The notes: generated from the letters alone by a model not told the origin. Shown: positions 1 to 63,458, counted from the whole stretch's first letter. The stretch is DNA of 63,476 bases, filler included, from Jimgerdemannia flammicorona (GCA_003990765.1; 3 parts of 3 records of this genome joined end to end with filler, not necessarily neighbours in it), one strand, 5' to 3'. Program-made: numbers and translations.

Positions 1-16
1 AAAAAAAAAAAAAAAG

Positions 17-177: not shown

Positions 178-179
178 GG

Positions 180-21094: not shown

Positions 21095-21194
21095 NNNNNN
21101 NNNNNNNNNNNNNNNNNNNNNNNNNNNNNNNNNNNNNNTTAATTAATTAANNNNNNNNNNNNNNNNNNNNNNNNNNNNNNNNNNNNNNNNNNNN
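21095..21194. other. Artificial contig spacer (N44-TTAATTAATTAA-N44)
   Basis: 100-nt gap with a central six-frame stop linker; identical to 42287-42386. Confidence 0.98.
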
Positions 21195-38090: not shown

Positions 38091-38294
38091 ATGATAGTGA
38101 TTTTGGTTGTAGGAGCTTTCCTTCTGTTGGTTCTTCTCTGAGCCAGTTCATTGATACAAGAGAAGCAATTGTCAATCATTCAGGAAGAGTATATTCTAAT
38201 GCCATAGAGATATCAGCCACTTGGTATATATCCATCTTCAATTTTCTTGTAGAATTATTCTTCTTTACTTATGGTAGGTTGGGCTGGGGTCTTG

Positions 38295-38704
38295 TTTGAT
38301 GAGCCAAATCCTTTGGATCCTCAGATGGTAGGCAGTAGTTCAGGGACTTCTTTAACTATCAGAGCTGATTTGATTTTCTCAAACAGGATCTGAGCAATGC
38401 AGAAACCAATGGGGATCTTGAAGGGTGTCCAACTGTAGTTTCAGATAAGAACAATGATTTTGCCTATATAATCTTTGTCAATGACTCCTTCTTCTACTGA
38501 GAGTTCTTTCAGTGCTAGGCTACTGTAACAGCATATTCTTTCAACATGTTCTTCAGGGATTTGGATGCTGATTCCTGTATAGACTTGCTTGACTTCTTGG
38601 TTGGAGACTATAGCTTCTTTGACTATATATAGGTCATAACCAGCTGCTTTTTGACTTCCTTTAGTTGGGGCCTTGGCAGTTGGCCTTAACTTGATAAAGT
38701 CCAA
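38295..38704 (-). pseudogene. dut: dUTPase domain
   Basis: PTKGSQKAAGYDLY...TGISI...SSLA...EGVIDKDYIGKI...IAQ...GSKGFGSS. Confidence 0.93.
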
Positions 38705-38769
38705 TATCTTGGTGGTCAGATTGTTGAGGTAGTGCAGAGTAGTAACAGTTGCTTGTATTGCTATTCAGG

Positions 38770-40520
38770 GTTTTCAGTTGGGGCAGGCACTGGCCATGTG
38801 TCTTGTCTTTCAGTAATAGAGGTATACTCTGCTTCTTCAAAGTTCATTTCTCTCTTCTTCAGTAAGTTTCTTGAAGGTACTCAGCTGGGTGAGTTCATGA
38901 TTTCAGAGTGTCCAAGAGGGAGCTCAGAGTGCTTCATGCTTGGGTTCTTCTTTCTTAGTCCAAGTTTTTTCCTTGTTATTAAATTGTCTTCAGGGCAGAA
39001 TTGGTCCAGCTATTAGGATTCACTTGACCATAGTCATGATTCTTGCCAGGCACTATTGTTGGTGGTCACAACCAACTAGGCATCCTTGTTCTCAGATTTT
39101 CCTTATAAGCCATTCAGGTAGTGTATTGAATAAATGATCTGCTCTTGTACCATTTCATACTTTATCATTGGCAATGTATCCTAGGCCAACAGTGTTCAGA
39201 AGTAACTCAAGTTTTGTATAGAAGGTTTTGAATTCCTCCTTGCCATATATATCAAATTTGAGATTGCAGAGTTTAACTTGAGATTTGGCAATTATGGTTT
39301 TGCTGTTGTATTGAGCAATCATGAGTTGTTTGAGTCCAGGTACTGCAGGATGGACTCCATATCCTGGAGTATTATTTGCTGCATTCTGGGCAACTACTGC
39401 AGGTCAGGTATCCTATATGAGGGGTTTTTCAGGAAGGGTTTGCCACTATTCTTTAGTAAGTCCTTGGAAGAATGTAACAACTTGACAGATATAGGCTGTA
39501 GTAGTAGCAAAGAGTTATTCCAGAGTGTGGTCTTGATTGTTTGTCAGAAGACAGTCAGCAACTCACTCATTGGTCCATTGATTAGCTTCAAAGTTGGTAT
39601 CAACTATACTAATAAAGCTTTGGACTTCTTGTACAGTGCCATTGAAGGTAGGTAGACTCAGATTTTTAGTTGGTCAGGTCTGTTTAGCTAAGGTAGTAAT
39701 GGTTGCTGTCATTATGACTACCTGGGCTGTAAGATCTAGAATCTGTTGATTTGCCATGTTGTTTGCTGGAGGTGGTTGGACTACTAGTAGTGGTATTATT
39801 GATACTACTTGAGGTACTGGTGCAGAGTGTGATGGGGTTCTTTGAATCTATATAAGTTGCTAGAGTAATAATTGTGGGTCTGGAGTGAGGGCTCAATAGA
39901 TAGCTATCTGTTGCTGTGTAGGTGTGTTCTGTCATAATGGAGATATGTCTCCTTTGGTAGTATATTCAGGATTGAATTCACTGAGATACTCCTCCTCCTC
40001 TTCAACTTGGTCCCTGTGTAGTTGGATTTGCTCAGTATCAAAGTAGACAGAATCAGTTATATATCTGATTTCAGATAGACTTAATTCAAAATCAAGTTCT
40101 GGTTCAGTATTGGTTTCAGTTTCAGGTAGAGCTATAGCTAGGCCTGCTTCAGGTTCAGAGTCAGATTGTTGATGAAGGGTTTCTCTTGCTCCTTTCTTTA
40201 GAATATGGCAGGCCTTGCTGTTCTAGAATCAGTAGTATAATGCAGTCTTGGTCCTGGTATAGTGAAAGTTGGTAGAGTTGAGCTACTTGGCTATGGATGC
40301 TTGCACTTTGTGAGAGACTAAGGCTAGAAAGACTGCTGCTGATTATCCTATATCACTCAGATTTGTGGAGCTAACAAAACTCTTATTGAGAAGTATAAAG
40401 AAGGCTTCTATAAGACCTTCTTTATCTTGACTTGTGGGGTGTAGAGCAAGGAGTTCAGTGAATAAAGTTTTGCCTATCTGCTGATTTAATTAGAGTACTT
40501 CTTTCTTTGAATAAAGTCTG
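38770..40520 (-). pseudogene. gag: gag with N-terminal extension, capsid and decayed zinc knuckle
   Basis: LPTFNGTVQEVQSFISIVDTNFEANQW (capsid start, homologous to 43690-43770). Decayed knuckle YLYY*KTRHMASAC; N-terminal block FHYTRTKTALYY. Confidence 0.8.
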
Positions 40521-40719
40521 TCCCACTTGTTGCAGGTGTGGAGATCAAATTGTCCTTGTATATTAGGTTCAATTCTCTCCAGATTATCAGATAGTTCAGA
40601 ATAAATTCCAGTTCAGAGGTTGGGCTTTATACCAACTTATAGAAATTCTCAGAGGGTTTTGTAGTGGGGTGAGAAAGCATCTTGAAGCAGAATTGGATTG
40701 TAAACTGCTACTATCAAGT

Positions 40720-42209
40720 TATAAGAGAATTACTTGTTAAAGTAACCATTACATAGTTCTGAAAGGGTTTTCTAGAAGTTCTGGATATTTTGAAAGACTA
40801 TTTTCTTAAGGTCAAGATCAATTTTATATAGAGTATGTCCTCTAAACTTATTGATTTCAGGATTGGATTGATATCTCAACTAAAGTCCTTTTTTAGACTA
40901 GTTCTGGATGTTTAGGATTTTCCATATTTCAGGAAGTTCAAGAAACTAAGACCAGCTTAGTTGAATTGGCATATCACTACAGACAATACCCAATTAGAAA
41001 TTTTCATGATAGGGTTAGGAGTGGGACCTAATGGGGGGCATATTTACTTAAGAGTGATTTGTGGATTATTAAATAGATTTATTCGCTATTCATAATATTG
41101 CTATACTAGGAGTAGTTGTGTGAAGGGATATTGTGGGGAAGTGCTCAGGAGTTGTGTTCAGATTGTTCAAATATTCAAGTCTGAGATTCTGAGGTCTGGG
41201 AGAGGGGGTATTTATACTAGTAAGAGACTATCTGGGCTATGCTGAATATGGATATAGCACTTAGTGTCTTGCTGAGTTGAAATACAGTCACATAGTACAA
41301 GTGTGATCTGATATGTTAAGAGATCATCTGACTACTGAGTCAGTTCACAGTTACATCATACAAGACTAGTCTAACTATACTATAATTGCTAAGTTACATA
41401 TCTATAGATTTAGACACTATCTGGATAGTCTTTGATGACATCACCATTGATGACATCATCCCTGACAAAGTCTGAGTAGTTTTCTGACTTCTGATATCAA
41501 TCTCTGTCTCTTATAAAATTAAGGCTATCCTTAGTAGTGGTGGTTATACAAGAATAACAGGTCTTGGTTCTCTTTTTTTTTTGAACTACTAGTGCATTTG
41601 TGAGGACTGGCCATCCTTGTCTAGGGTGAGGGCTCCCAATGTTATAGCTGAGGGTTCAAATCTCTTGAAAATGATATTTTCTATAATCCAAGGCAATTTC
41701 TAGTAGTAATATCTATTATGTGGATAGGCTTGAGATTGGTTTCAACAATATCAGCTTTCTTGAGTTTAGATGAAGTATCTGTCATTCTCCAATGGAGGTG
41801 ATACAGATAGAGTGAACAAAGTTGTTCAAATATATTTTACTTCTACTAAGTAATGAGGTCTTTGTATAGTTGTGGTGGTATATCTTGGTCTTGAGTTAAT
41901 AAGTACAGTTCTTGAACCTTTGGTAGATAAGAGAGGTTCTTCTCATCTCAGTTTGAGTTTGGTACTTCAGTTTCCTTTTGTAATAGTATGATATACCAAA
42001 ACTAGTAGTAAAGGTATAGGGTCAGTCTTATGGTTATAGTACTTCTTCTGATATTCTTATATCTTGATGGTAGGTTCTTGTACTTGCTGGCATATTTTGT
42101 ATAACCAGGTGATCTCTTCAGTAACTTGTTTTGTAATCTTGCATGTAGTTTCCAAATTAGTTCTGAGGATGACATGCAATTTTAGTGACTTGGAGATTGT
42201 ATGCTTATA
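40720..42209 (-). repeat. 5' LTR of family 3
   Basis: Direct repeat of 35832-37338. Followed on the minus strand by TGATAGTAGCAG, a possible decayed TGG-type PBS. Confidence 0.92.
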
Positions 42210-42286: not shown

Positions 42287-42386
42287 NNNNNNNNNNNNNN
42301 NNNNNNNNNNNNNNNNNNNNNNNNNNNNNNTTAATTAATTAANNNNNNNNNNNNNNNNNNNNNNNNNNNNNNNNNNNNNNNNNNNN
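42287..42386. other. Artificial contig spacer (N44-TTAATTAATTAA-N44)
   Basis: Same 100-nt linker as 21095-21194. Confidence 0.98.
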
Positions 42387-42777
42387 CCCTGAGTCTTAGT
42401 AATGACATCTAAGTGACTCTAGTGTTTCTGACTAAACTCCAGAAGCCTAGCTAACTTCTGCCAGAACTGAGACTGGTATATAAATCCCCAAAGACTTAAG
42501 TAAACCCATTGAATCTGAATTCCAAGGCGAATTCAATCTGTACATAGCAAAGAACAAGACCTTCGAAATAGGACATAAGAGAAAGACCTTTGAAACAGAA
42601 GGCAAACTCAAGAAAGACCTTTGAAAGATAAGGCACTACCACTACACTTACTTACAAGTGAGTACTACCTCAAACTGAAGGCTTCTTGGTATACATTGTA
42701 TACTAAGTCCCTAAGTAATAGTCCACTTCCCTAATTATCCAAAGGATAAGAGAGGGGTAGAAGTGAGAGTTATTACA
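42387..42777 (+). repeat. 5' LTR (3' portion) of copy A
   Basis: Matches about 50654-51013 and ends GAGAGTTATTACA. Confidence 0.93.
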
Positions 42778-42797
42778 AGTAACCCCCAGAATCAACT

Positions 42798-44600
42798 GTG
42801 GATCCTCAAACCAGAGCCAGAGAAGTCCTTGTCATTAAGACCAGATGGTATCAGGAAACTACAGACCCAAGAACCCACCAGCTTGTAATTGATCAGGCTT
42901 ACAAGGATCTATACCAGGCCTTTAGGACATACCACCCAGGACTTAGGAATATTGTCAGCTACTGTAGGTTCTATGAACTCCTCCGAGGACACATTGGAAC
43001 CACTAGGACCCCAGAATCTACTGCTGCAGCCACCCAGGATTTTCTAGATTATATTACACCCCCTGCTGTAAGAGAAGCAGCTGCTGAGTGGATTGCCTCT
43101 GACAGATATCATCATACTCCTACCAAGACCTCCCTCTACTACAGACTAGTTGTATACTATTCCTCTGCTATAACCAGGTACAAGAATGAGCAAGCAGGCC
43201 AATCATCCCCTACTGCTGAACAAGGAGCAGGCCCATCTACCCAGCCAGAGACTGATATCCTCTTTGAAGGACCTAGCCAGTACAAGGACATACTATCTCA
43301 TCAGGGAAGGGAGTCAGACAAAGACTCTACAGGTTATCAGTCTGATGATAGCCAATAAGGAACAGCAGGTTTAGGAATTTACCAAGGAACCACAGGTCAA
43401 GAAGATCAGACCCCAGAACCAACTCAGCCACCTATACAGAGGTTTGGTTTACCCTCTCTCACAGGACTCTTTGACTTAATATCCAGAAATCAAGTAACTC
43501 CAAGTCATACAGCCCCACAACCCCACCAAGCAGAACAATCTTCAAGAGAATCTACCCCAACAGGCCCACCACCAATAGTCAACACAATGGTAGATACCAA
43601 TATTGCAGCACTGACTACCCAGCTAGTGGTACTAGCAGAGATAGTAGGACAGATTGCCGAACAGAACAAACCAATCAAGACTTTGCGAATCTCAACATTC
43701 AGTAGAAAAAACAGTGACATTGAAAACTTCATCAATGCAGTTGACACAAGCTACTGAGCAAACCAATGGAATGATAACCAAGTGCCTATAGGAATGCTCA
43801 CCAATAACCAGAACAGCACCCTTCAACAGCTGTTTGCTACATCAGCAGCACAAGTAGAAACAGTAGCTACATTCTTCACTAGAACAGCAGCGGAATTCTG
43901 GTAAACCTTGGAACAATACCCAGTAACCTGGGAAGTCCACCCTCAAGTCAATGGACAAGTACCTGGCAACAATAGACCAGTTTGGGATGACCATGAAGCA
44001 GGCCCAGGACTCAAGGCCTTACTACTGACCAAATTCCAAAATGCGGCCTACATATAAGAAACTTGGAACAAACTGTCCCAGATGAAGTTCCACAAGAATG
44101 GTGAAGAGGATCTAGAGACCTTTGCCACCAGAATGGATGCCTACCTCATAACCATTAGACTTACCTACCAGGAGAACAATTTGGCCATTAATGGTACCAG
44201 AGCCAACCATCTCTTTGCAGCCCTACCAGACTGGCTCACCCAGAAGATCAAGGAACAAGGTCTTCTCCAAGGATGCCCTCACTACTCATGGTGTTTTGCC
44301 CAAGTACCAAGAAGAGCCCATGAAATCCTTACTGCACAAGCTCCACAAATTTAAGAACACAAGAAGAATAACCAAGATAGGAGAAATCCTACTAGGAGAA
44401 ATGATCAAAGGAATGATCAAAGATATGATCAACAGAATTATCAAAGGAACCAGTGAAATCCCAGAGGACCCAGACCTCCCACTGAGGATGAGAAGAAGCA
44501 GCTTCATGAAAAGAGATTGTGCTTCATCTATAAGAAGGCAGGACACATCTCAGTCAAATGTCCCAAGAAGAGAAACAGATCAGGTGAACTCAGTAACCAG
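42798..44600 (+). pseudogene. gag: gag with long N-terminal extension, capsid and zinc knuckle
   Basis: ORF 42798-43358 reads through a TAA in frame into RISTFSRKNSDIENFINAVDTSY*ANQW. Knuckle CFIYKKAGHISVKC at about 44517. Confidence 0.85.
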
Positions 44601-44649
44601 AACATTACTGTCATTAGAGAAGGCCCAGGAAAGAAGAACCCCAAGAATA

Positions 44650-45065
44650 TTATCAAAGTACAGAAGATATGGTACAAGGCTACCATCTCTACTAAGGCTC
44701 ACCCAACTGATACTGGATATGATCTCTACAGCAGCCAAGACCTCACTATTCCACCAAATACCAATGCTACAGTGTGAATAGGAATTGCAATACAAGCCCT
44801 CAAAGGAATATATATCTGCCTTGCTGAGTGAAGTAGCCTAGTCAAAGTGTTCAATATTGGACTAGGAGGAGGAGTAGTTGACTAAGGATTTACTGGCAAA
44901 ATCCATATCATCTTGCAAAATTTTGGAGACACATCATTTGAAGTCAAAACAGGCCAAAGGATTGCCCAAGCAATCATTGAAGAAATCCGTCAAGATCTCA
45001 CCATTGAAGAAGTCCCCAAACTCTCCCAGATAGACTGTAGCAAGAAAGGGTTTAGATCTACCAAC
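44650..45065 (+). pseudogene. dut: dUTPase domain directly after nucleocapsid
   Basis: KAHPTDTGYDLY...IGIAI...*SSL...GGGVVD*GFTGKI...GQRIAQAII...KKGFRST, in frame with the zinc knuckle. Confidence 0.93.
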
Positions 45066-45369
45066 AAACCTCCCAGTCAAAAGGGCACTACCATGAAGAA
45101 AGATGATGAAAACTGGTATAAGAGAATTGCAGATGGTTATGTACCATGTGGACGATGCCCTCATTCTATTTGAATGTACTGCATGGAACATATTGGTGAA
45201 TGCCATGCATGCCTCTTCAAAGTTTTCAAAATTCAATCTGAGAAACGCCAAGATCAACAGACTGAGGAACTCAAACAAGACAACCCTCCTTGTGAAAGAT
45301 GGAGAGAAACTGACTTTGAGGAGACTGACAGCAATTGGGATAACAATGAAGATAAAGAGCTCAATACTA

Positions 45370-48300
45370 TAAAAAAGGAGGACAGTTGCATCAAGTTCAC
45401 AGGCCAAGTTCACAGACAAAATATCAATGTCTTGCTTGATAGTAGTGCTACTGGAAACTACATCAGCACTAAGACCACCAAGATGATTGGAGCCCGAAGC
45501 AGACCAACCACTGAGAAAAGAAGTATTACCTTTGGTAATGGTAAAACTGCACCATTGACCAAGATCTGCAAAGATCTTTTGCTCAAGATTGGCAAATATC
45601 AAGAGAAGTTAGACTTTAGCATTGTAGACCTCCCAGGACAAGATATTATCTTAGAAAAAGCCTGGTTGACCCAGCACAACCCAGACATCAACTGGAGAAC
45701 CAACGAGATTAACCTGATCCATGAAGGCAGAAAGATCACCCTGACACCACAGGAAGGTACCAACTATCAAGGAATCAAAATCATCTCTGCCATTCAAATG
45801 AAGAGACTCTCTTGAAAAAAGGGAAATACCTACTTCATCTGTACAGTACAAGAAGTCACTGAAGCTACAAGTAGCCCAATCCCAACAGAAGCTCAAGAAC
45901 TATTTAAAGAATTTCAAGATGTATTCTAAGACCCCCAAGGACTTCCACCCAAGTGCCAAATCCAATATGAAATTGATCTTATTCGAGGATCTGAACCCCT
46001 ATACAAGAGTATCTACCAACTAGCCCAACCTGAGCTCAAGACCCTCAAGGATTAATTGACCAAACTACTGGCCCAAGGATACATTGAACCCAGCCACTCT
46101 CCATTTGGAGCCCCCATTCTATTTGTCAAGAAGAAGGATGGTTCTCTGCAAATGTGTATTGACTACAGAGCTCTCAACAAGATCACTATCAAGAACTGGT
46201 ATGCCTTATCTAGGATTGATAAGTTGCTACACCAAATCTTCAAGGCCAAGACCTTTTCTCTACTGGATTTGCGAAATGGCTACCACCAGATTCTCATTGA
46301 TGAGAAGAACATCAAGAAGACAGCTTTCTGAACACAGTTTGGACACTACCAGTTCTGAGTCATACCTTTTGGATTGATCAATACACCAACAACATTCCAG
46401 TATCTGATGAATGACATCTTTGGACCACTCCTCAACATCTGTGTTCTTGTGTATATTGACAATATACTAATCTACAGTAAAACAGTAGAGCTACATTACA
46501 CCCACCTCAGATATGTACTGACCCTCCTGCGAGAACACTAGCTCTATGCCAAGATGAGTAAGTGTAAGTTCTATCAAGACCAGATTGAGTACTTAGGACA
46601 CATCATCTCTGCCAAAGGTATTAATTTAGACCCCCGAAAGGTATCAGCCCTTAAGGATATCCCTATTCCTACTACCCTCAAGCTACTCCAGCAATTTCTG
46701 GGTATTGCCGATTATTACTGAAGGTTTATCCAAGGATACTCTGCTATTACAGCCTCACTGACCAGCCTGGCCCACAAAGGAGTAAACATCAAAGCTGAAT
46801 GGACTCCTGAATGTATCCTGGCTATGGACCATCTCAAGAGACTCCTTACTGAGGCCCTAGTACTAATTGCACCTGACCCAACCAGATCATTCACTCTGAC
46901 CATGGATGCCTCTGACATTGCCATTGGAGCAGTGCTCAGCCAAGAAGACTGCCCAGTGGCCTACCTTTTCCAAAAGCTCAAGCCAGCTGAGACCCAGTAT
47001 ACTATCCATGAGAAGGAACTCTTGGCTATTGTCACTGTACTTTAGGAATAGCGCCATTTCCTCCTAGGACAGCCATTTGTGGCCTACACTGATCACTATG
47101 TATTGTAGTATATTTACACACAGCTCATACTGACCCACAGACAAGCCTGCTGGATGGAAATCATTGCCAACTTTGATATAGAAATCAAGTATATCCCAGG
47201 CAAAACCAACCATGTGGCTGATGGTTTCTTCAGGTATATGGAGGATGAACTTGTCTTCATGGTCAAAGTAATTGAAGACCTTATCCAAATGATCAAGGAT
47301 GGCTACCAGCAGGATAGCCCCCTGATGAACTTCCTTCAATTCTGCCAAGATCCAGAGGCCAAGGTTCCAGAATCCATGAGACAAATGGCCAAGAGATTCA
47401 CCTATCATGATGGACTTATCTACAGAGACCATGACAGAGTAGTTGTACTCAACAATGATACTCTGCGGCTCAAGATCATGCAGGAACTCCATGATACTCC
47501 TGCAGCAGGACATTTTGGTTTCAAAAAAACCTACAACCTCCTCTCAAGAGAGTTCTACTGGCCAAAGATGACCAAGAACATCAAAGACTTTGTGACCTTA
47601 TGTAAGATGTACCAAAGGTTTAAAAGTAGTAACAAGCTACCAGCCAGACTCCTGCAACCCTTGCCTATCCTGAGTCATAACTGGGACCAGATTGCAATGG
47701 ACTTTATTGTCCAACTCCCCAAGACCAAGGCAGGATGGGATGCCATTGTGGTATTCATAGACTGTCTAAGTAAACAAGCCCATTTTGCACCCACCAAGAC
47801 CACCACTATAGTACCAGAGATTGCTGAGATTTTTCTCAATCAAGTATTCAGGCTACATAGCATGCCTAGTACTATTGTATCTGACCAAGATGCCAAGTTC
47901 ACAAGCAACTTCTAGAAGGCATTTTTCTCTCTCCATGGAACCAAGCTGAAGTTCTCTACTGCCTACCACCCTCAGACTGACAGTCAAACTGAGCATACCA
48001 ACAGGACTCTCAAACAGATGCTTAGCATCTTCTGCTGTTATAAGCAAAATGATTGGGACAAATACCTAGCCCATGCCGAGTTTGCCTACAACAACAGTCA
48101 GCAAACCTCCACAAAGAAGACTCCATTCTTTCTAAACCATAGTCAACACCTGAGGACCCCAAGTACTACTGCGAAATCAGTAGTCCCAGCAGCCCAAGAT
48201 CTGGCTGAGACCATTTCTGATCTTACCCAAATGACAAGAGATGCTCTCATAGAAGCACAAGACTACCAGACCAAGTATGCGAACTTGAAGTAAAGAGAAG

Positions 48301-48780
48301 CCTCCTACAATATTGGTGACATGGTTATGCTTAGAACAGACCACCTCCACCCAGACACTCTGACATAACAACCAGCCAAGAAACTCTGTGCTAGAAGAAT
48401 TGGACCATACAAGATTATGGAAAAAATCAGTGAAGTCAACTACAAGTTGCAACTCCCCCACAATATCTGAGTACACCCAGTATTCCATATCAGCCAATTG
48501 GTGGACCATCATGAGAATCTATTCCCCGAGCATACAATTCCACCACCACCCCTAATTAGGATCAATGATTATGAGGAATTCAAAATTGAGGAAGTACTTG
48601 ACTATAAGGTCTGCAAATATCCCAAAACAGTCAAGCAGTTTTTCCTGATCAAGTGGAAGGGTTACCCCACTCATGATGCCACCTGGGAAAAAGAAGAAGC
48701 CCTGAAGAATACATGCGAAGCCCTCTAGGACTATATGGAAACACTCACTCCCCAGCAAAGAAAGGAACTGCAGCTCTAGG
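45370..48780 (+). pseudogene. pol: pol: PR-RT-RNase H-integrase-chromodomain, disrupted
   Basis: [70 protein letters not shown]; chromodomain EEFKIEEVLD..FLIKWKGYPTHDATWE. Confidence 0.95.
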
Positions 48781-48899
48781 ATTTGGAGCACACAGTGAGC
48801 AGAAGGATATCACATACTTATCTGGAAACATATAATATCAAATATTGTGAAAAAGGGAACACTATGGATAACCAATAAGAAGATACCTGAGCAAAAGAG

Positions 48900-49213
48900 C
48901 AATCTAGTACAGTACAGCAAAATACATTTGAACAACTCCATTTCATACCATCTGTACCATTTCCGCTGGATGATGATGGATACTTCATATAGAACTTAGG
49001 AAAGCTGACAATGTCGAAACCAGTCTAAGTCCATCCACATGACAGATATTATTACTAGGAATTACCTTGGATTACAAGAAAAGTCTATTTCTGAGAGGTT
49101 CAAACTCTCAGCCATAATAATAGGAGCCCTTGCCCTAGACAAGGATGGCCAGTCCTCGCAAATGTGCCAACCAGACAAAAAAAAAGAGGACCAAGACCTG
49201 TTAACCCTGTGTA
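48900..49213 (+). pseudogene. Putative accessory ORF-X (unknown function; start uncertain)
   Basis: QNTFEQLHFIPSVPFPLDDDGYFI*NLGK...HDRYYY*ELPWITRKVYF*EVQ...GWPVLAN...KKRGPRP. Present in copies B and C and in the family-3 LTRs. Confidence 0.5.
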
Positions 49214-49350
49214 ACCACAACTACAAGTGATGATATCTTTGAAATCAGGATTTTCTCATATGACCAGCACATGCTCTGCTTACAGCAACAGGTCATGCAT
49301 TTTGCCAGAAAGCATGACCAAAGGAAGGTCACATCAGATAGGTGAATAAG

Positions 49351-49358
49351 TATAAATA
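49351..49358 (+). promoter_or_regulatory. Internal TATA box upstream of ORF-Y
   Basis: TATAAATA 73 nt before ATG 49424; conserved in copy B (~59702) and copy C (~62490). Confidence 0.6.
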
Positions 49359-49423
49359 CCCAAGGTAAGAATACTTTGCCACCCTCATCCCCCTCTCCTC
49401 ACAAAGAAAAGGACAAGATAAAA

Positions 49424-50254
49424 ATGCCTGCCACTTGCCACCAAACTGCCCGCCATAGCCAGCCCCTCCTAAGCCAGATTGACTACCTCTTTGGACACAT
49501 CCAGATTACTATCTAAGGAAGGAACCACCACTCAGAGGCTCTTAACCTCTCCAGCCAGGATCTAGGACATTATGTCCTCAACTGCCATGAAGTCATTGAA
49601 AGGGCTTACCTTGCCACTAGCTGCCTAGAGATCTGGTATGAATATGAGATTGGCCATAAACTCCTCCAACGAGCAAAGGACCTGCCCATGGACTAAGTCT
49701 CTGATTGGACCCACCTGGATGGGAGCAAGCAAAGACTTGTCAAGAAGGTCCATCAAATCATGTACCATGCACCCTTTGCAATCCCCAACCTCAACTATGT
49801 CCAACTGAAGGACTTCCAGAACCTCTTCTTCTTTGAGGTTGACAAACTAGAAATCAAGGTAGCCTAAGAAGCCAACTCCTGGATCACCCTCAAGTTTACT
49901 GACTGCAAACCCTACTGGAGCCCCCTTCTGAATAACAACCCTGATCAATGGCTCCAAGGCCTCTCTGACCTCTTTGAAGGACTGCCCATCTGAATAGATA
50001 TTCTCAGGCATGAGGACAAAGAACCCTACTTGGATGGCCCCAACTACATCAGATGGAGAACCCCTACACCAGCACCTATCCCAATGCAAGAACCATTTGC
50101 AGACCTCATTGACTTCTCCATCCTGGACAGTGAGCCATCAGCAACCACCACCCCCCCTACTACTGAAGAAAATACCAACAACCCTGAGCAGGATTCTCTA
50201 CCTTTCTCTCCTCTAGTTCTCAATTTCTCAATCAACGAGGACATTGATTTCTAA
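49424..50254 (+). pseudogene. Accessory ORF-Y, 277 codons, unknown function
   Basis: Single frame from ATG to TAA with no frameshift. Four internal stops: three are Gln codons in copies B/C, and one is TGA/TGA/TAA, consistent with ancestral CGA. The stop overlaps the PPT. Confidence 0.85.
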
Positions 50255-50265
50255 GAAGAAAAGAA

Positions 50266-51013
50266 TGTAATAGAACAAGGCATGATGAGTGATCATGTGA
50301 CCCAACGGTAATGACGTCATCATATGAATGAAGCGTAACATACGAATGATGCAAAACGATACAGAAAATGATATCTAGCTTATTTCCAACAATTGGCACT
50401 ACAGCAACTATTGCCACAGCTACTGATCATTGCCTAGTAATTGAGGTCCTAATTATAAAGATATTCTTTATCAAAAACTACCTGATAAAGGTCACAATCA
50501 CAAACCTCATTATAGTTATCAAATTAATTACTCATACTTAGTCAGAAATCGCAGACTAACTTGTATAAATACCTCCCAGTTTCTATCTAAAATAAAGCAG
50601 TTTTAGTTTAGTCCTTGATACAAGAATCAAGTTCCCCCCCTACACACACATTCCCCTGAGTCTTAGTAATGACACCTAAGTGACTCTAGTGTTTCTGACT
50701 AAACTCCAGAAGCCTAGCTAACTTCTGTCAGAACTGAGACTAGTATATAAATCCCCAAAGACTTAAGTAAACTCATTGAACCTGAATTCTAAGGTGAATT
50801 CAGTCTGTGTACAGCAAAGAACAAGACCCTTGAAATAGGGCACAAGAGAAAGACATTTGAAACAGAAGGTACTGCTGCTACAACTACTTATAAGTGAGCA
50901 CTTCCTCAAACTAAAGGCTTCTTGGTATACATTGTGTACTAAGTCCCTAAGTAATAGTCCACTTTCCTAATTATCCAAAGGATAAGAGAGGGGTAGAAGT
51001 GAGAGTTATTACA
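50266..51013 (+). repeat. 3' LTR of copy A (748 bp)
   Basis: TGTAATA...TATTACA termini, preceded by PPT AAGAAGAAAAGAA. TGACGTCA at 50312, TATAAATA at 50564, AATAAA at 50591. Confidence 0.95.
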
Positions 51014-53150: not shown

Positions 53151-56100
53151 CTAAGTATAAGATGCTCCTGACTCTTCTGAACAATGTCCAACACCTTTCT
53201 CATAGCCCCCATCTGGTGCCTCTTCCCCTGATACCACCACCCTTATACCACTTCTAACAGCAACCCTTTCCACTGCTCCACCAATTCTCTGATTCCCATC
53301 TAAGGATCTCTCTCGAACACCCATCGCCAGTGTACTGCCATCAGTACCCAGATGCTGATAATCCAACCCAGGCCTCCCCAGATGTCCCCAATTTCCCCCA
53401 CCAGTCGATGCTTGATCACCTGACAAGAGGGGCCACCTGTCTGTGTACTCTCTACTCTCCAATAACCTTCTAATGTCTGCCAAAATCCTTCGACCCCTGG
53501 GCATTCAGCCAGAACATGCTTGGGCGTCTGCACTACTCCACCATCTAGCTCACAACACCACTCACATTTCTTTATACCATCCTCGACCATTCACCCTGTC
53601 CTGTACCCCAGCATGACATTCCTCCACAGAAATTGCCACCATACTACCCAGAACTTAGGTGGGACAATCTTGAGTAGAGAGGTCCCCCAACCCCACACTC
53701 AGCCCCACTCCCACTTTTCGCCATACCCGGTCTTCTGCCAACCAACCGGCCACCTCTCAAGTGGTCCTATCCAGATCCACTCCATTGCCCCAGTTAAAGA
53801 GTACTCTACCAATGAGTGGCTGCCAACACGAATCCCACTAAGTCACCACCATCGCCGTTCTGGGTCCTCCTCTTCTCCGCCAGGCTCCGGGCCCATAAGC
53901 CCCATTGCTAGCCATACTTCTACAATGCCCCACCAGAATCCCTGATAGTGCAGCCTGCCAACCTTTCCAACCTGGAGCAAACCATGCATATCCTTCCGAA
54001 GTTCATCCCGGGGGCAGAACCTTACTTCCCAATTGTCTATGGCCAGTTTGCTCCAACCCTCCCCTCCTAATTCTACCATTCGACAACCCCACCAGCCCCG
54101 AAGTGCCTTCAGCCACCTTCTAAAGTCCACCAGCCCCAGACCCCCATCTGCCTTCGGCATCACTATTATCTCCCAGCTAATCTGTGATCTTCTTCTCTGC
54201 CATAACCATCCTTCGACCACCTTCTTCAGTTTCTGTACCACCCACCCTGGAAAGTCCAGGTGGTACCCCAGATACCACAGCTTTGGCAACCAATATACAT
54301 TCAAAACTACAATCCTCCCAACCAAAGAAAATCCCCTCCCTGACCAGCCTACCAAAGAATTCTCCCACTTCTGTATCAATCTACTTGGCAGCACTATCCC
54401 ATATACCGAGAACCAGATGCCCAAATATTGCACTGCCTCCCCAGAACCAACCAAATGTCCAAAATGTCCATGCTCCCCCAAGCCAGCTCCAAGCTCCATA
54501 GTCTCACACTTACCCCAGTTCAGCTTCACCCCTGCCAGCATCTCATACTGCCCTACCCCTTTCTGCAAGCTCACCACATCCTCCACACTGCCTAACCCTA
54601 CCACCATGTCATCCACAAAGGCCCCTAGCTTCCAGACCACCTCCCCTATCTTCAACCTGGTAAGTCTCCCCTTCAGCCATGCCAATAAGGGCTCCAAAGA
54701 CAAAATATAAAGCAGGGGTGAAAGAGGATCTCCCTGTGGCACACCTTGTCCTAAGAAAAACTCCAGGCCACTCCACCCATTCATCAATACTGCAGCCTGG
54801 CAACCTCACACCAGACCCATCAGCTTTTGAGCCTCCCCCATGCCAAATCTGGCCTTCCATAGAACTGCCTCTAAGAAGTTCCACCTCACCCTATCATAAG
54901 CCTTTTCCTGATCCAAGAACACCATTCTTCCATCAACTTGCTGGCTTCTACATCTCTCCAAAACATTTTGCACCCAGGCTGTACTGTTGCGAATCTGTCT
55001 CTCCTTCACAAACCCTTGCTGTTCCTCACCAATCAATCTACCAATCCATTGCTGCATTCTCTCTACCAGAATCTTAGAGACCAACTTCCTATCTACATTC
55101 AGTAACATGATGGGTCTCTAGTTCCACCACACACATCTGTCCCCTCTCTCCTTGTAGAGCAGAGAGACTAGTCCCAAGGAGCCATTGCCAATCCAGCAAC
55201 CTTCCCCCAGTGTAAAGTTTGCCATTTCCACCAACTATTCCCCAAACTCAGTCTGAAACTCCTTCCAGAACTCCCAGGGCAGACCATCCTCCCCTGGCGA
55301 TAAGCCCACCTGCACTTTCCTCAGAACCTCCAATACTTCTTTGAGGGCCACCCTACCCATTACTGCCCCACCAATTGTAGGCTCTGCCTCCACTGACCAG
55401 CTGCCAACCAAATTGTTGTTATCCTCTAGTGCTGCCTCTCCTTCCACCAGCCCTCCATCATCCTGCCATAGGGAGCACCAATGACCAGAGATCTCCCCAA
55501 GCATATCCATGATATCTGTCACCTCTGTTCCATCCTCTCGCAACACTGAGGCCCAACTGTGCCGCACTTTCCTGGCCTTCAAGATTCCTGATAAGTATTT
55601 GGTGGGTCGCTCTCCTTCCTCCAACCTCCTTGCTCGCAATCTTGCCAGCAACCCATCTACCACCCTGTCTTCTGCTGCCTTCAAATCTGACCGCAACTCA
55701 GCTACCTCTTTGATCAATAGGGAGTGCTATTCCATAGAGGAGTTCTCTCCTTCCAGAAGTTTAAGCTGCCAGCGAAGCCCCTGCTCCACTCTCCTTTCTC
55801 TATCCTTCTGCTCTCTTCTAGCTACTTCTCCTATATCATGCCAATATGCACCTGCTAGATGTTTAAATTTCCCCCACCACTGTGCTATTGGCTGGCCACC
55901 ATGCTTCTACCATGCTACTTCCTGTCTTGTGATTTTCACAAACTTGTCTCGCTCCACCTGTCTCTTAAGTAGTGCCACATTAAGTCTCCATCTACCTCCA
56001 CTACCACTGGTCACCTGGAATCTCCCACACACCTCCACACCCCAGTGATCTGACCAGGGACACTACTGTACCTCTGATAAGTCTAAAATATTACCCCAGT

Positions 56101-56737
56101 ATTCTGCTATCAGGATCCAGTCAATCCTTGTCCCAACCAAATTCTCACCAAATGGATGCCACCTAGTAAATGGCCCTGACTTCTCACCTTGACATTGCCG
56201 TACTCCATCAATCAATCCCATTTTCTTCTCAGCTTGAAGCCATCATAAGAGCCCAGTGGAGACTGCCACACCGACTCCACCATCCGACCTATCTAATGTC
56301 CTATCATGCACCATATTAAAGTCCCCTCCCAGAATGTCCAGCCCAATCTCATCTCGGCCTCCCCAATTCAGCCAACCTTCCACCCATTGATTTTGCTCCC
56401 TGCCAACTGCCAGCAGATATACTGAGGCAACCACCAGTCCATCACTAGCTCCTCCTTTCAATCTCCCCCAGATCAATCGATCACCATAATTCTCAACCTC
56501 CTTCAGTTCTCCTCTCCCCACTCCAATCAAGATGCCCACCTGCTCATTCTACCCTGCACTACCAAACCATTCCTTGCTCCACTCCTCATAATCTTGCTCC
56601 CCATAGGCCCGAATGTCCTGTAGAAATACTACATCATACCTCCTGTTCTTTAGCCACCGAAACAAACACCTCTGCTTCACTCCATCCTGCAAACCATTGA
56701 CATTTAGCAATAATATATGTAGACTGTTCATCATCAT
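53151..56737 (-). pseudogene. LINE ORF2 (AP endonuclease-RT-C-terminal zinc finger)
   Basis: LLLNVNGL, VVFLQD, GGDFN, RIDW, SDH (APE); LLNVDRKLVSKIL, LDQEKAYDRV, GVPQGDPLSPLLY, FVDD (RT); PKADGGLGL; CEWC..HVLAEC. Confidence 0.93.
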
Positions 56738-56749
56738 GAATATAAATGT

Positions 56750-56887
56750 TTAAAGCTCAGCCGGAATCGCCACCACCTTTTTGGCCCTACTGCAGATTAT
56801 TGCCTTCTGTTTCTCACAGATAGCCCTCCAGATGCAGGCTCCATTCACACTACTGCAGAAGGCATCCACTCGCTCTGATGCCACCTT

Positions 56888-56926
<39 letters not shown>

Positions 56927-58645
56927 CTGATGCCACCTTCCTGATATCAGCCATACGATTCTCATCCACCTCATATCCTTCATCATTCAGAAGTGCTGCC
57001 ACCATCACTGTCACCAACTTCAGCCCCTGCAATGCCACATTGAGGAACCCTTCCCAGGTCTCCTGCGATCTATTAAACACATCCACTTCCTTGATATCCT
57101 CCTCTGTAAGTTCCTCGAGCACTGCCTGATACCAGTCATCTGCCGTCATCACCATGGGCCCAGGCGTGGCTGGCCTTGGGGTCTGCTCAGCTCCTGCAGC
57201 ATCTCTCTATCCACTGATACATCAGAAGCCACATCCACCAGGTCATCCTCCTTAGTGTCTTTCTCTAGCCGAACTACTTCGCCTGCTTCTGGGTATTCCC
57301 AATGAACATTCGTTGCTCCTGCCATGTGGACATTCTCCAACTGGGTCTCCAGTACCACCTTGATAGCCTCCTCAAAGCCCCCAGTGTTCGCCTTCTCCTT
57401 ATCCACCCACTTCTCCTTTACTGGTGTGTGGGTGGAGCTCTCCACTCTCCTTAATTGCACAAAGGACACCTCGGCTGTCTCCACCTCTTCCATCTGATTC
57501 TTGGCCACCTCTGCTCTCTCCTTTTTCTCCTTTTCCGAGCCCTGGAGGACCGTCTGCAGGCGCTCCCAGTTTGCCCTTCACCACCTCTTCCTCCTCTCAT
57601 CTGTCAGGATCCAGATCCAGTCCTTGGCAAACTCCTCCCATCTCCTCTTCCGCAATTCCTTTGCAGCCTCTCTCTACTCTAGGACAACTAGCAATTCCTC
57701 CTCCTCCTGTTCAGAACCTTTCCTTCTCTACACCTTGCACTTCTGCCCTCCAATACGGATCACTTCCAGCCAGTCCCTCCCTTGCCCTGTGGCCTCCTTA
57801 CCCTCTAGTCTCACCATCACCTCGCAATTGCCATTCCTCAGCTTTGTCCTCTCCCAGAACATGAATCCAAAGTCAACCATCTCGCCAAACACCCCCAGCA
57901 CCTCTGCCACCATTTCCTTGGTCTCCTGTCTCCCCAGTGTCAGCAGTCCTTCAACCACCAGTCACACTGCCCTCAGGTCCCACCTCAGATACCTTGCCAT
58001 GCCAACCTTGATGCTTTTGATGACCAGCCCTTTCTCCAGGGCCTTCACCATCTCCTCCTCCTCAACAAATCCTATCTCAACTGCCTCCGCCGATGGGATG
58101 AACTTCAGTGACTCGGCCCCTGCAATCTCCTCTCCCACTAGCCGCAGGACCTCTCTAGCAGACATCCCCAGCCCCAAGAAATTCGCCAAAATAGCCCACA
58201 TTGACACCAACTTGTGGAAGAAGAGATGTACCACCAGTTCACCAGAATCTGCTGCCATTGTTGCCTTCTTCTTGTTCTCTGATACTCCAGCAGTCACCCT
58301 AGCCACCGGCCCAGCCCCAGGAATACCAGTCTCAGCCACACCACTTCCAGACCCCTGGCCCCTTGCAGGCACCTGACCAGTCACCTGACCAGTCACCTGG
58401 CTGGTCACCTGACTCCTACCCCTGTCAACACTACGTCCCCCCTGCCCTACCCCCATGGGCCTGGCAGCCGCCCTCCTGCCCCCCATCACCATGTACCAAC
58501 TCTCAATGCTAGCCTGCCTCCCCTGACCACCCGCATTCCTTGCCTCTACACCAGCCCCAACCGTCGCTGTGAAACTCTTAGGAAGACCCAGACCAGGCCT
58601 CCTTCTCTCCAAATGCTCAGAGCTTAATGAACCCTGGGTCGCCAT
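56750..58645 (-). pseudogene. LINE ORF1 (Gly-rich N-terminus, RRM-like region, charged helical region)
   Basis: ORF pieces 57962-58645, 57728-57958, 57149-57508 and 56850-57155; homologous to 30393-31898. Confidence 0.8.
56890..56926 (-). mobile_element. Poly(A)-only retro-insertion with perfect TSD
   Basis: 37-nt T run flanked by identical ctgatgccaccttcc (56875-56889, 56927-56941). Absent from the homologous site near 32095. Confidence 0.9.
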
Positions 58646-60602
58646 CCGATAAAAACTCCACCAAAACAGACGAGACTTGTTATATATTGTAGCTAGACTC
58701 CTGCCACACCTTGTACACCAGAATAGATGACAGGAAAACTTGAAAACATGTTGCTTGTCGCGAAAAGATGTCTGTGTGGCTTAGCTTGCTCTGAATGGTT
58801 CGAGCAAAAGGAGTCCTATTATACCTAGTATTCCATATCAGCCAACTGGTGGACTACTATGAGAACCCATTCCCCAAGCATAAAGTTCCACCACCACCCC
58901 CAATTAGGATCAATGATCATGAGGAATTTGAAATCAAGGAAGTACTTGACCATAAGGTCTGCAAATATCCCAAAACAGTCAAGCAGTTTTTTCTGATCAA
59001 GTGGAAGGGTTACCCCACCTATGATACTACCTAGGAAAAAGAAGAAGCTCTGAAGAATGTACATGAAGCCCTTCAGGACTATATGGAAACACTCACTCTC
59101 CAGCAAAGGAAGGAACTGCAGCTCTAAGTATTGGAGCACATAGTGGGCAGAAGGATACTATATATTTTATCTGGAAATATATAATACTGAATATTGCAGA
59201 AAAAGGAACACTATAGATAACTAACAAGAAGATATTCGAGCAAAGGACAATTTAGAATAGTATAGCAAAATATATTTGAACAACTCCATTTCACACCATC
59301 TATGTCATCTCTGCTGAATGATGACAGATGCTTCATATGGAACTTAGGAAAGCCAATGATGTCAAAACCAGTCTAAGTCCATCTACGTGACAGATATTAT
59401 TACTAGGAATTGCCTCGGATTATAAGAAAGTCTATTTCTAAGAGGTTCAAATCTCCAGCCATGACAATGAGAGCCCTCACCCTAGACAAGGATGGCCAGT
59501 TCTCACAAATGTACCAACCAGATAAAAAAAAAGAGGACCAAGACCTGTTAACCCTGTGTAATTATAAGTATGAGTGATGATATCTTTGAAATCAGGATTT
59601 CCTCATATAACTAGCACATGCTCTATTTATAGCAACAGGTCACACATTTTGCTAGAAAGCATGACCAAAGGAAGGTCACACCAGATAGATGAATAAGTAC
59701 ATATAAATACCCAAGGTAAGAATACTCTGCAACTCTCATCTCCCTCTTCTTACAAAGAAAAGACAAGACAAGAATGCCTGCTATCTACCGCCAAACTGTC
59801 CGCTATAGCCAGCCCCTCCCAAGCCAGGTTGACTACCTCTTTGGACACATCCAGATTGCTATCCAAGGAAGGAACCGCTACTCAGAGGCTCTTAACCTCT
59901 CTAGCCAGGACCTAGGATATTATGTCCTCAACTACTGAGAAGTTATCGAAAGAACCTACCTTGCCACCAGCTGCCTAGAGATCTGGCATGAATATGAGAT
60001 TGACCATCAACTCCAAAGAACCTGCCCACTGACCAAGTCTCTGATTGGATCCACCTAGATAGACATGAGCAAAGACTTGCCAAGAAGGTCTATCAAATTA
60101 TGCACTATACATCCTTTGCAATCCCCAACCTCAACTATGTCCAACTAAAGGATTTCCAGAACCTCTCTTTTCCCAAGGTTGATGAGCTAGAGATCAAGGT
60201 AGCCCAAGAAATCAACTCCTAGATCTCTCTCAAATCTACTGACTGTGAATCCTACTGGAGCCCCCTCCTGAATGACAACTTAGACCAATGGCTCCAAGGC
60301 CTCTCTGACCTCTTTGAAGGACCCCCAATCTGAATGGATATCCCCAGGCATGAGGATTAAGAACTCTACTTGGATGGATCCAACTGCATCAGATGGAGAA
60401 CCCCACCACCAGTACCTATCCCCATGCAAGAACTATTTACAGACCTCATTGACTTCTCCATCTTAAAGAGCAAGCTATCAGCAACCACCCCTCCTGCTAC
60501 TGAAGAAGATGATAACAACTCTGAGGAGGATTCTCTACCTTTCTCTCCCCTGGTTCTCAATTTCCAAATCAATAAGGATGTTGATTTCTAAGAGGGGAAG
60601 AA

Positions 60603-61398: not shown

Positions 61399-63458
61399 AA
61401 AACTATCAGACCAAGTATATGAACTTAGAGTGAAGAGAAGTCTCCTATAACATTGGTGACATAGTCATACTTAGAACAGACCACCTCCACTCAGATATCC
61501 TGGTACAACAACCAGTCAAGAAACTCTATACTAGAAGAATTAGACCATACAAGATTGTAGAAAAAGCCTGCAAAGTCAACTACAAGTTACAACTTCTCTA
61601 TAATATCTAAGTATACTCAGTATTCCATATCAGCCAATTGGTGGACTATTATGAGAACTCATTCTCCAAGTATACAGTTCCACCACTACCCCCAATTAGG
61701 ATCAATGATCATAAGGAATTTGAAATTGAGAAAGTACTTGACCACAAGGTCTGCAAATACCCCAAAACAGTCAAGCAGTTTTTCCTGATCAAGTGGAAGG
61801 GTTACTCCATCCATAATGCCATCTGGAAAAAAGAAAAAGCTCTGAAAAATACACACAAAGTCCTCCAGGACTATATGGAAACACTCACTCCCTAGCAAAG
61901 GAAGGAACTACAGCTCTAAGAATTAGAGCATATAGTAAGCAGAAGGATATCACATATTTTTATCCAAAACATATTATACCAAATATTGTAGCAAAAGAAA
62001 CACTATAGATAATCAATGAGAAGATACTCAGGTGAAGGACAATCTAGTATAGTATAGCAAAATGTATTTGAATAACTCTATTTTATACCATCTGTATTAT
62101 CTCTGCTGGATGATAACAGATACTTCATATGGAACTTAAGAAAGCCAACAATGTTGAAACCAGTCTAAGTCCATCTATGTGACAGATATTGTTACTAAGA
62201 ATTGCCTTAGATTACAAGAAAGTCTATTTCTGAGAGGTTTGAACCCCCAGTCATAATAATGGGAGCCCTCACCCTAGACAAGAATGGCCAGTCCTCACAA
62301 ATGCACCAACCAGACAAATAAAAAAGAGGGCCAAGACCTGTTAACTCTGTGTAACCATGACTATGAGTGACAATATCATTGAGATCAGGACTTTCTCATG
62401 TGACCAGCATATGCCCTGCTTTAGCAATAGATCATATGTTTTGCAGGAAAGCATGACTAAAAGAAGGTTACACCAGATAGGTGAATAAGTATAAATACCC
62501 AAGACAAGAATACTCTGCAACTCTTATCCCCCTCTCCTTATAAAGAAATGACAAGACAAGAATGCCTGCTACCTACTACCAAACTGCCTGCTGTAGCCAA
62601 CCCCTTCTAAGCCAGATTGACCACCTCTTTGGATATATCTAGGTTACTATCCAAGGAAGGAACTGCTGCTCTGAGGCCCTTAACTTCTCCAGCCCAGACC
62701 TAGGACAGTATGTCCTTGACTGCTGTGAACTGATCAAAATGGCCTATCTTGTTACCAGCTACCTAGAAATCTAGCATGAATGCAAAATTGGCCACCAGCT
62801 TCTGCAACATACAAATGGCCTATCCACTGACCAGGTCTCTGACTGGACCTACCTAGATAGGCATAAGCAAAGACTTACCAAGAAGGTTTATTAAATCATA
62901 TACTATATATCCTTTGCAATCTCCAACCTCAACTACATACAACTAAAGGACTTCCAGAACCTCTCCTTCCCTGAGGTTGATGCCCTAGAAACCAAGGTTG
63001 CCCAAGAAGCCAACTCTTGAATTGCCCCCAAGTCTACTGATATTGAGCCTTACTAGAGCCCTCTCCTGAATAATAACCCAGACTAATGGCTCCAAGGCCT
63101 CTCTGACCTCTTTAAAGGACCACCTATCTAAATAGATATTCTCAGGCATGAGGATCAAGAACTCTACTTGAATGGCCCCAACCACATCAGATGGAGAACC
63201 CCTACACCAGCATCTATCCCAATGCAAGAACTATTTATAGATCTCATTGACTTCTCTATCCTGGACAGCAAGCCATCAGCAACCACCCCTGCCACTGAAG
63301 AAGATGGCAACAACTCTGAGGAAGATTCTCCACCTTTCTCTCCCCTGGTTCTCAATTTCCAAATCAACAAGGACATTAATTTCTAAAGAGAGAAGGATGT
63401 AATTGAATGAGGTGCAATGAGCAATCATGTGACCTAGTGAGTGATGACATCATCATAC
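61399..63458 (+). mobile_element. Family 4 copy C, 3' part (IN tail-chromo-ORF-X-ORF-Y-LTR start)
   Basis: 61399 onward matches about 48259 onward. Chromodomain ORF 61638-61895, ORF-Y 62562-63386 in one frame, LTR from 63398 cut by poly(T). Confidence 0.93.

Follow-up and report, generated by a model that had tools for sequence, protein, structure and literature searches.

We analysed a 63,476-nucleotide (nt) stretch of DNA from the fungus Jimgerdemannia flammicorona (GCA_003990765.1), hereafter the window. Our subject is a candidate gene, which we call ORF-Y (ORF, open reading frame), that lies between pol and the 3′ long terminal repeat (LTR) of a Ty3/gypsy retrotransposon. In this element (copy 1), ORF-Y runs on the plus strand from an ATG at 49424 to a TAA at 50252–50254, a span of 276 codons. 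A first-pass annotation, made from the sequence alone, had placed ORF-Y at 49424 to 50254, which we confirmed in the sequence, and had listed further copies at 59774–60591 and 62562–63386, which are real. It overlooked a fourth, divergent copy at about 27230–28037. Comparison with metagenomic sequences indicates that ORF-Y is a genuine gene family, dead in the window and intact elsewhere.

The window consists of three contigs that were joined artificially; sequences on either side of a linker are not necessarily adjacent in the genome. Both linkers (21095–21194 and 42287–42386) consist of 44 N, TTAATTAATTAA, and another 44 N. Long runs of T lie at contig ends (42213–42286 and 63457–63476).

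Layout and decay of the ORF-Y copies

All of the features of copy 1 are on the plus strand. The visible part of the 5′ LTR (42387–42777) ends with ATTACA; its start was lost at the contig join. The internal region (42778–48770) extends from gag to the chromodomain and is decayed, with many stop codons. Next come a non-coding spacer (48771–49350), a candidate TATA box (TATAAATA, 49351–49358) that is 73 nt 5′ of the ORF-Y ATG, and ORF-Y itself. A 13-nt purine run, the polypurine tract (AAGAAGAAAAGAA, 50253–50265), overlaps the ORF-Y stop codon, and the 3′ LTR (50266–51013; 748 bp) follows, running from TGTAAT to ATTACA. As can be read directly from the sequence, these LTR ends form a 6-nt terminal inverted repeat. 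The partial 5′ LTR is only 84.9% identical to 50654–51013 (over 391 nt), so this insertion is old.

Using Pfam, we found domains of zinc-knuckle gag, dUTPase, RVP_2, RVT_1, Integrase_H2C2, and rve in copy 1, in that order on the plus strand. The dUTPase match (44517–44774, between the gag zinc knuckle and the protease) is weak, at 21.6 bits versus a cutoff of 22. The Chromo match comes from the corresponding part of copy 3 (61638–61892; E = 1.5e-9). Because of this domain order, including the chromodomain on copy 3, we assigned the element to the chromoviruses; with the TG...CA ends of its LTRs as well, copy 1 is, as judged from its sequence, a dUTPase-bearing Ty3/gypsy chromovirus. Right after the 5′ LTR of this otherwise decayed element, there is a fully open frame of 186 codons (42798–43355) with no match in Pfam, which is presumably the N-terminal part of gag. 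This frame and ORF-Y have the word FEGP in common, but we rejected homology between them (hhalign probability of 0.7%).

Copies 2 and 3 are truncated members of the same family and are 84.1% and 82.7% identical to copy 1. Copy 2 (59774–60591, plus strand) has its TATA box at 59702–59709, its polypurine tract at 60590–60602, and an LTR that begins at 60603. For copy 3 (62562–63386, plus strand), the TATA box is at 62490–62497, the polypurine tract is at 63385–63397, and the LTR begins at 63398; the contig ends at 63476. The first-pass annotation had noticed a TATA box about 70 nt upstream of all three copies, and indeed the same box, TATAAATA, is 73, 72, and 72 nt before the ATG. In all three copies, the stop codon of ORF-Y adjoins the purine run, and the LTR, beginning with TGTAAT, comes right after this run.

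In copy 1, the frame that had been said to run from ATG to TAA is not open: it has four in-frame stops (codons 31, 91, 148, and 190). Copy 2 also has four stops (codons 55, 153, 190, and 199) plus a frameshifting deletion of 10 nt, and copy 3 has seven (codons 27, 71, 111, 153, 165, 175, and 190). It had also been claimed that the stops mostly fall at different codons and that the consensus is essentially open. The first part is right, as 10 of the 12 codons with an internal stop have it in a single copy. As for the second part, codon 153 is a stop in two copies (as different stop codons) and codon 190 is a stop in all three (TGA, TGA, and TAA); when the majority of the three copies is taken at each codon, the frame is interrupted at codon 190 alone.

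Each of these stops is one transition away from a Gln, Trp, or Arg codon of another copy or of a relative. More broadly, across 1865 aligned columns of the three copies, 377 of the 420 single-copy differences (90%) are transitions. The observed/expected ratio of CpG is 0.12, 0.09, and 0.00 in the three copies, versus 0.50 in a metagenomic relative (contig L001; see below). These figures support the premise of the first-pass annotation that the host hypermutates its repeats. At the position of codon 190, the relatives have R (four sequences), K, Q, or T. Because of these residues, and because the copies are depleted in CpG, parallel CGA>TGA mutations at a CpG would be a sufficient explanation for the stop at codon 190. 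Alternatively, the stop could have been inherited from a common ancestor of these three neighbouring copies. By these signs, all four copies in the window, including the divergent one, are dead relics that are riddled with transitions, and the family is alive elsewhere.

Relatives, copy number, and selection

When we compared a single ORF-Y sequence to 5.8 billion proteins, just one of the 201 candidates was a match: P0003, which has 214 amino acids, is open, and is 61% identical to copy 1 (E = 2.5e-76). An exhaustive search of 1.84 billion representatives found five proteins at E ≤ 0.001. P0011 and P0012 were added by a profile search, and P0008 and P0009 were added by a cluster look-up. Altogether, there are nine open relatives of 119–342 amino acids, from 7 clusters; their E-values range between 2.5e-76 and 8.7e-4. 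They come without exception from metagenomes, are of soil origin, and are either unnamed or annotated as “hypothetical protein.” A search of viral contigs found no relative of ORF-Y. With P0010 and P0003 as queries, ESM Atlas yielded no relative that we could use; a single row (0.89) that points toward Mucoromycota is a lead only.

Within the family, we distinguish three subgroups: A (the window copies, L001/P0003/P0008, and P0004), B (P0005, P0009, P0006, and the divergent window copy, which we term lineage 2), and C (P0007, P0011, and P0012). An M-P-A/P start is kept across the subgroups, with M-P in subgroups A and C and in lineage 2. The conserved words of the core are W-H/Q-E/D-Y-E-I, A-K-K-x-H-Q-I/V-F-R-H, L-Q/N-D-N-P-D-Q, F-E/Q-G-P-x-I, and I-x-W.

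L001, a contig of 1535 bp, was the sole relative returned by a search of metagenome contigs. It carries an intact ORF of 291 codons, listed from the ATG at 376. The ORF ends with TAA, followed by AGGAGGGAGGAT and then by TGTAATA, which is the same arrangement as in the window copies.

We used the Nei-Gojobori method to compute the ratio of nonsynonymous to synonymous substitution rates (dN/dS) in the ORF-Y frame and in the two shifted frames. For L001 versus copy 1, dN/dS is 0.20 in frame and 0.95 and 1.33 when shifted, and the differences are distributed as 82/63/126 across the codon positions. L001 versus copy 3 gives 0.26 in frame and 0.76 and 1.50 when shifted. For copy 1 versus copy 3, the values are 0.35 in frame and 0.59 and 0.83 when shifted; since non-coding controls from the spacer give 0.38–0.80, the in-frame value of 0.35 is not decisive, and this counts against the gene. 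Within the window, dN/dS is weak evidence, since an excess of transitions depresses the ratio whichever frame is read.

Could ORF-Y be just a chance open frame in decayed repeat DNA? Every copy in the window has stops, and within the window dN/dS is hardly better than in the spacer controls. However, open relatives of 247–342 amino acids exist, the ratios that involve L001 are 0.20–0.26 in frame versus 0.76–1.50 out of frame, and the motifs are conserved across all three subgroups. Because there are open relatives and the in-frame dN/dS is 0.20, ORF-Y is more than a chance frame, and we consider that explanation to be refuted, with a probability close to nil. The first-pass annotation had named a dN/dS near 1, with frameshifts shared by the consensus, as a sign against the gene; in the comparisons with L001, dN/dS is well below 1. 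By these ratios, ORF-Y evolves under purifying selection.

The divergent copy in the window (~27230–28037, plus strand) was found with tblastn and with a profile of the family. According to tblastn, it is 64–69% identical to P0005 and P0006 and ~35% identical to copy 1; its matches to the profile have independent E-values of 3e-48 and 1.9e-23. It is AT-rich (~27% GC), frameshifted, and full of stops. Upstream of it, on the same strand, are dUTPase (23753–24025, just before the reverse transcriptase), reverse transcriptase, and RNase H. Because these domains precede it, we infer that a second, diverged Ty3/gypsy element keeps ORF-Y in the same place. The integrase and chromodomain of this element are too decayed for detection, and no purine run follows the ORF-Y stop.

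LTR retrotransposons with additional ORFs are known from other groups. Additional ORFs in the sense orientation between pol and the 3′ LTR (aORF-3S) are described in plants and insects, where they are mostly env-like (PMC7264820, in the passages on such ORFs). Additional ORFs are also reported from rotifers (in part of PMC5408684) and from nematodes (in part of PMC10309623). ORF-Y has the same place and orientation as aORF-3S, and like them, as the passages of PMC7264820 present them, it is in most copies of its family. Specifically, by sequence it is in the sense orientation, extends from after the pol stop to the polypurine tract, and is present in 3/3 copies of the chromovirus, in L001, and in the second lineage.

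To estimate copy number, we aligned the contigs from three soil-metagenome DNA runs to 48780–50300. In run X2, 428 contigs matched this stretch (32 at ≥99% identity and 122 at 95–99%), so ORF-Y is present in many copies. The X2 copies have C at the first base of stops in copy 1, namely in 153 of 163 (by depth) at codon 31 and in 55 of 55 at codon 148. Three of the X2 contigs continue past 50255 with GGGGGAAGGATGTAATAG, which is the unmutated polypurine tract and the start of the LTR.

This abundance bears on whether ORF-Y is a captured (transduced) host gene without any role in the life cycle of the element. Additional ORFs can originate by transduction, among other ways, but transduced ORFs are found in one or a few copies (both according to the relevant passages of PMC7264820). 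The window alone has four copies of ORF-Y, from two lineages, and run X2 has it in hundreds of contigs. Also, a relative with 61% protein identity has it in the same place, by the polypurine tract, and no cellular homologue turned up among the 5.8 billion and 1.84 billion proteins. We therefore consider a passive capture to be quite unlikely. An ancient capture that was followed by domestication by the element could still lie behind the family.

Expression, the upstream block, and neighbouring elements

As ORF-Y is directly 3′ of pol and in the same orientation, it could be a part of Pol, either as a last exon, reached by splicing out the ~650-nt spacer, or as a read-through extension, reached by frameshifting. 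In copy 1, the frame is open for about 75 nt before the ATG. On the other hand, the pol frame ends after ...KELQL in all three copies (at 48770 in copy 1), and ~650 nt without a coding frame separate this stop from the ATG of ORF-Y. Each frame of the spacer has stops that are common to the three copies, which rules out the spacer as a second coding region. In both copy 1 and L001, the ORF-Y frame itself does not extend far upstream of the ATG before it closes, and the M-P-A/P start is conserved across subgroups. Finally, among 7997 candidates of 600–2000 amino acids, none were fused, which is weak evidence by the tool's own rating. An extension of Pol is very unlikely.

Instead, ORF-Y would be the 3′ cistron, with its own M-P start, and would be translated from a subgenomic mRNA. 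L001 has TATAAAAG 80 nt 5′ of its ATG, and lineage 2 has TATAAAAG at 27139–27146 (plus strand), 91 nt 5′ of its ATG. Counting the three copies, L001, and lineage 2 together, a TATAAA box is thus 72–91 nt 5′ of the ATG. CATCCCCC lies 35 nt past the TATA start in copy 1 and 34 nt past it in L001.

A block of ~310 nt is also conserved, 130–430 nt upstream (48916–49224 in copy 1, with its core at 49133–49155). The equivalent blocks in the other copies are at 59264–59564 and 62056–62363. The core of the block, CCCTAGACAAGGATGGCCAGTCC, has 5 matches versus 0 expected, and a core region of ~70 nt also aligns with L001. The block is 76–81% identical to 36662–36970 and 41534–41841 on the minus strand, which lie inside both of the 1.5-kb LTRs of another element (described below). 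Rfam has no match in 48700–50400. On sequence similarity, the block could be a regulatory module that the two elements share.

It is plausible, from these upstream sequences, that ORF-Y has its own promoter. We favour an internal promoter because TATAAA is 72–80 nt upstream in lineages with only 61% protein identity, because CATCCCCC follows the box at almost the same distance in copy 1 and L001, and because the upstream block is also found within LTRs, where promoters normally lie. On the other side, TATA-like words are common in AT-rich DNA, and the box of lineage 2 means little at ~27% GC. Also, conservation is moderate along the whole leader, so the TATA box does not stand out as an isolated footprint. 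As for the transcript itself, the chances are about even that a subgenomic mRNA starts ~30–40 nt past the TATA box and ends at the poly(A) site of the LTR. A spliced ORF-Y mRNA, as in Bagy2 or Cer1, is somewhat less probable and is the leading alternative to internal initiation.

There is precedent for internal initiation. In the Tor elements of Oikopleura, an internal promoter for the 3′ gene was mapped, and the same is stated for the accessory genes of complex retroviruses (PMC4402516, in the passages on promoters). Like ORF-Y as we picture it, the 3′ gene of these Ty3/gypsy-like elements does not depend on the 5′ LTR for transcription; its promoter lies in pol or in the spacer that follows pol. 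However, the Tor gene encodes a membrane glycoprotein (Env), and its promoter was identified by 5′ rapid amplification of cDNA ends, whereas ORF-Y has only a conserved TATA box (same passages of PMC4402516).

The other element that contains the block is an internally deleted LTR element on the minus strand (35831–42207), with LTRs of ~1.5 kb (35831–37336 and 40719–42207) that are 88% identical. It has gag, protease (37880–38179), and dUTPase (38444–38764, minus strand, E = 1.5e-16), and it is without reverse transcriptase, integrase, or ORF-Y. Neither tblastn nor the profile search found remnants of ORF-Y in its 1.5-kb LTRs. This element is probably non-autonomous.

We also noticed other features of the window. 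dUTPase domains are present in three different Ty3/gypsy elements (at 44517–44774, 23753–24025, and, on the minus strand, 38444–38764). An element of ~5.6 kb is present in two copies, at 30190–35820 (plus strand) and 53171–58815 (inverted), which are 73.8% identical; one of them interrupts copy 2 of the chromovirus. The GC skew of this element is extreme (+0.42 to +0.53 and −0.45). It looks like a non-LTR retrotransposon, with the word F-V-D-D in an ORF at 53843–54787. In the first contig, 16–4783 and 14155–20104 form a repeat pair (78.7% identical over 909 nt and 83.4% identical over 3875 nt).

The predicted protein and its possible role

The N-terminal 190–240 residues of ORF-Y are mildly acidic, with an isoelectric point (pI) of 5.6–6.4. 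The remaining tail, of 56–126 residues, has a pI of 4.05 and a net charge of −12 to −22. Two short hydrophobic motifs, D-L-I-x-F and P-L/M-V-L-N-F, are found in the tails of subgroups A and B. The family has no conserved cysteine pattern. AlphaFold predicts, with low confidence, mostly helices up to about residue 186, along with two short strands and an unordered tail. The product is probably soluble, with a mostly helical part of ~200 residues as modelled and a strongly acidic tail that is probably disordered.

We compared ORF-Y to known domains, sequences, and folds and found no similarity. Pfam gave nothing above its cut-off for copies 1 and 3 or for the 11/11 family members that we checked. 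Among sequences in the PDB, which we compared to a single sequence and to a profile, the best E-values were 0.43 and 0.67. With the low-confidence models as queries, Foldseek had 0 matches in the PDB at E ≤ 0.001, and BFVD, a collection of viral models, also had 0 matches at E ≤ 0.001. Two wide searches with VIA-align had best Z scores of 4.8 and 4.7, which are not above noise. Scattered rows with helix-turn-helix proteins (Z of 3–4.4) are below the noise level that the tool states, and we did not use them. A match to an accessory protein that had already been described, which the first-pass annotation had listed as grounds for dismissal, was absent from Pfam, from the PDB, from the AlphaFold/Foldseek searches, and from the literature that we saw.

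The location of ORF-Y, in the sense orientation between pol and the 3′ LTR, is the classical place for env (PMC7264820, in part), so we considered whether it encodes an env-like or cell-to-cell movement protein. We examined four intact members (P0010, P0004, P0005, and P0011). None has a signal peptide (the N-terminus is polar) or a transmembrane-like segment: the maximum Kyte-Doolittle mean over 19 residues is just 0.43–1.07. In this, the first-pass annotation was correct. The protein is also acidic and is predicted to be helical and disordered. The aORF-3S of plants and insects, as the passages of PMC7264820 describe them, mostly have transmembrane segments; ORF-Y does not, and it belongs to no named family. 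We consider it extremely unlikely that ORF-Y is env-like.

We estimate a probability of about 60% that ORF-Y is a genuine and previously unnamed accessory gene, in the sense orientation between pol and the 3′ LTR, of a dUTPase-bearing group of Ty3/gypsy elements that includes at least one chromovirus. That it is an accessory protein gene of a retrotransposon had been proposed in the first pass; the three subgroups, the purifying selection, and the lack of a transmembrane segment all bear this out. The protein would not be an enzyme, as it has no detectable signature of one. Rather, it would act in trans as an adaptor or a regulator, with the acidic tail recruiting a host factor. We favour a recruiting role because a helical part with an acidic, motif-bearing tail is the usual build of recruiters.

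Several points weigh against this view of ORF-Y. The genomic context beyond the window is known for one relative alone, L001. Both of the tail motifs are absent from subgroup C, which has other acidic-aromatic words. The structural models are poor (the mean predicted local distance difference test score is 46.7 for the whole protein and 59.9 for residues 1–220). And the N-terminal part, at a pI of 5.6–6.4, is not basic, which argues against direct binding of DNA or RNA and so weakens the most specific version of the proposal, that ORF-Y is an activator.

By analogy with the accessory activators of complex retroviruses, we tentatively suggest that ORF-Y may be a transcriptional activator of its own element, although the odds are clearly against any one role. 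The foamy-virus protein Tas has ~300 residues, is encoded next to the 3′ LTR, has an internal promoter, and has an acidic C-terminal activation part. Unlike Tas, ORF-Y has no evident DNA-binding part, and we found no homology between them; the fold search against viral models was empty at E ≤ 0.001. Neither Pfam nor the fold searches identified a DNA-binding domain in ORF-Y, although the models are too poor to exclude one; the acidic tail is present.

Ranked after the activator, other roles might be the export or handling of RNA, a defence against silencing or hypermutation, and the trafficking of particles. For RNA export, the likeness is to CERV of the C. elegans element Cer1, which is a Ty3/gypsy accessory protein without a family that acts in trans on its own RNA (PMC10309623, in the passages on CERV). 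CERV differs in being made from a spliced mRNA, and it is needed for export of the genomic RNA (same passages of PMC10309623).

The first-pass annotation had proposed an anti-silencing or DNA-binding role. By analogy, ORF-Y could be an anti-silencing or anti-hypermutation factor that shields new copies from cytosine mutation or methylation; VANC from plant VANDAL transposons and the APOBEC antagonists of retroviruses are conceptual parallels. The repeats are heavily mutated, with 90% transitions and CpG nearly gone, so a counter-measure would be selected, and the tail, which is acidic and has short motifs, would suit a protein that binds and blocks a protein of the host. But ORF-Y is not similar to any known factor (in Pfam or among PDB sequences), the four copies in the window have been mutated to death, so any protection was not lasting, and the sequence has no sign that is specific to such a role. 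With no match to a domain or fold and with a mildly acidic N-terminal part, a VANC-like role is not supported, and we consider an anti-silencing factor unlikely.

The activator hypothesis can be extended to a circuit, in which ORF-Y would be an activator expressed from the internal promoter of a “complex retrotransposon,” the ~310-nt block would be its response element, and the deleted element at 35831–42207 would be a parasite. The deleted element would parasitise the activator because it carries the block but lacks reverse transcriptase, integrase, and ORF-Y. This full scheme is a long shot, a little less probable than the anti-silencing role. If it is true, then a circuit of regulator and response element of the foamy-virus kind evolved independently in retrotransposons.

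In the literature, we found no description of the ORF-Y protein. The nearest thing is in the legend to Figure 3 of Novikova et al. 2010 (PMC2864245), which lists, for a full-length LTR retrotransposon of a fungus, an “add. ORF” with no known function; other passages of that paper describe dUTPase-bearing fungal chromoviruses. Like ORF-Y, this “add. ORF” is an extra ORF in a fungal Gypsy element, a comparison that is to the legend alone. As the passages give no sequence, place, or family for it, it could be ORF-Y or a different ORF. The passages that we found of a survey of fungal LTR elements (PMC3248453) mention no accessory ORF. The soil origin of the relatives and the fungal dUTPase chromoviruses in the literature would likewise suggest a fungal host for ORF-Y.

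That an LTR element has an extra ORF is not, by itself, surprising. What is new here is an unnamed and conserved family with a testable regulatory layout. To our knowledge, almost none of the extra genes of fungal LTR retrotransposons have been studied. More generally, an LTR retrotransposon with an extra gene has taken a step toward the complexity of viruses, and very few such genes have a known role. ORF-Y defines a protein family, and an upstream block of DNA, that annotation pipelines currently miss, and it is a manageable system in which to ask what, besides gag and pol, a retrotransposon requires when its host mutates repeats.

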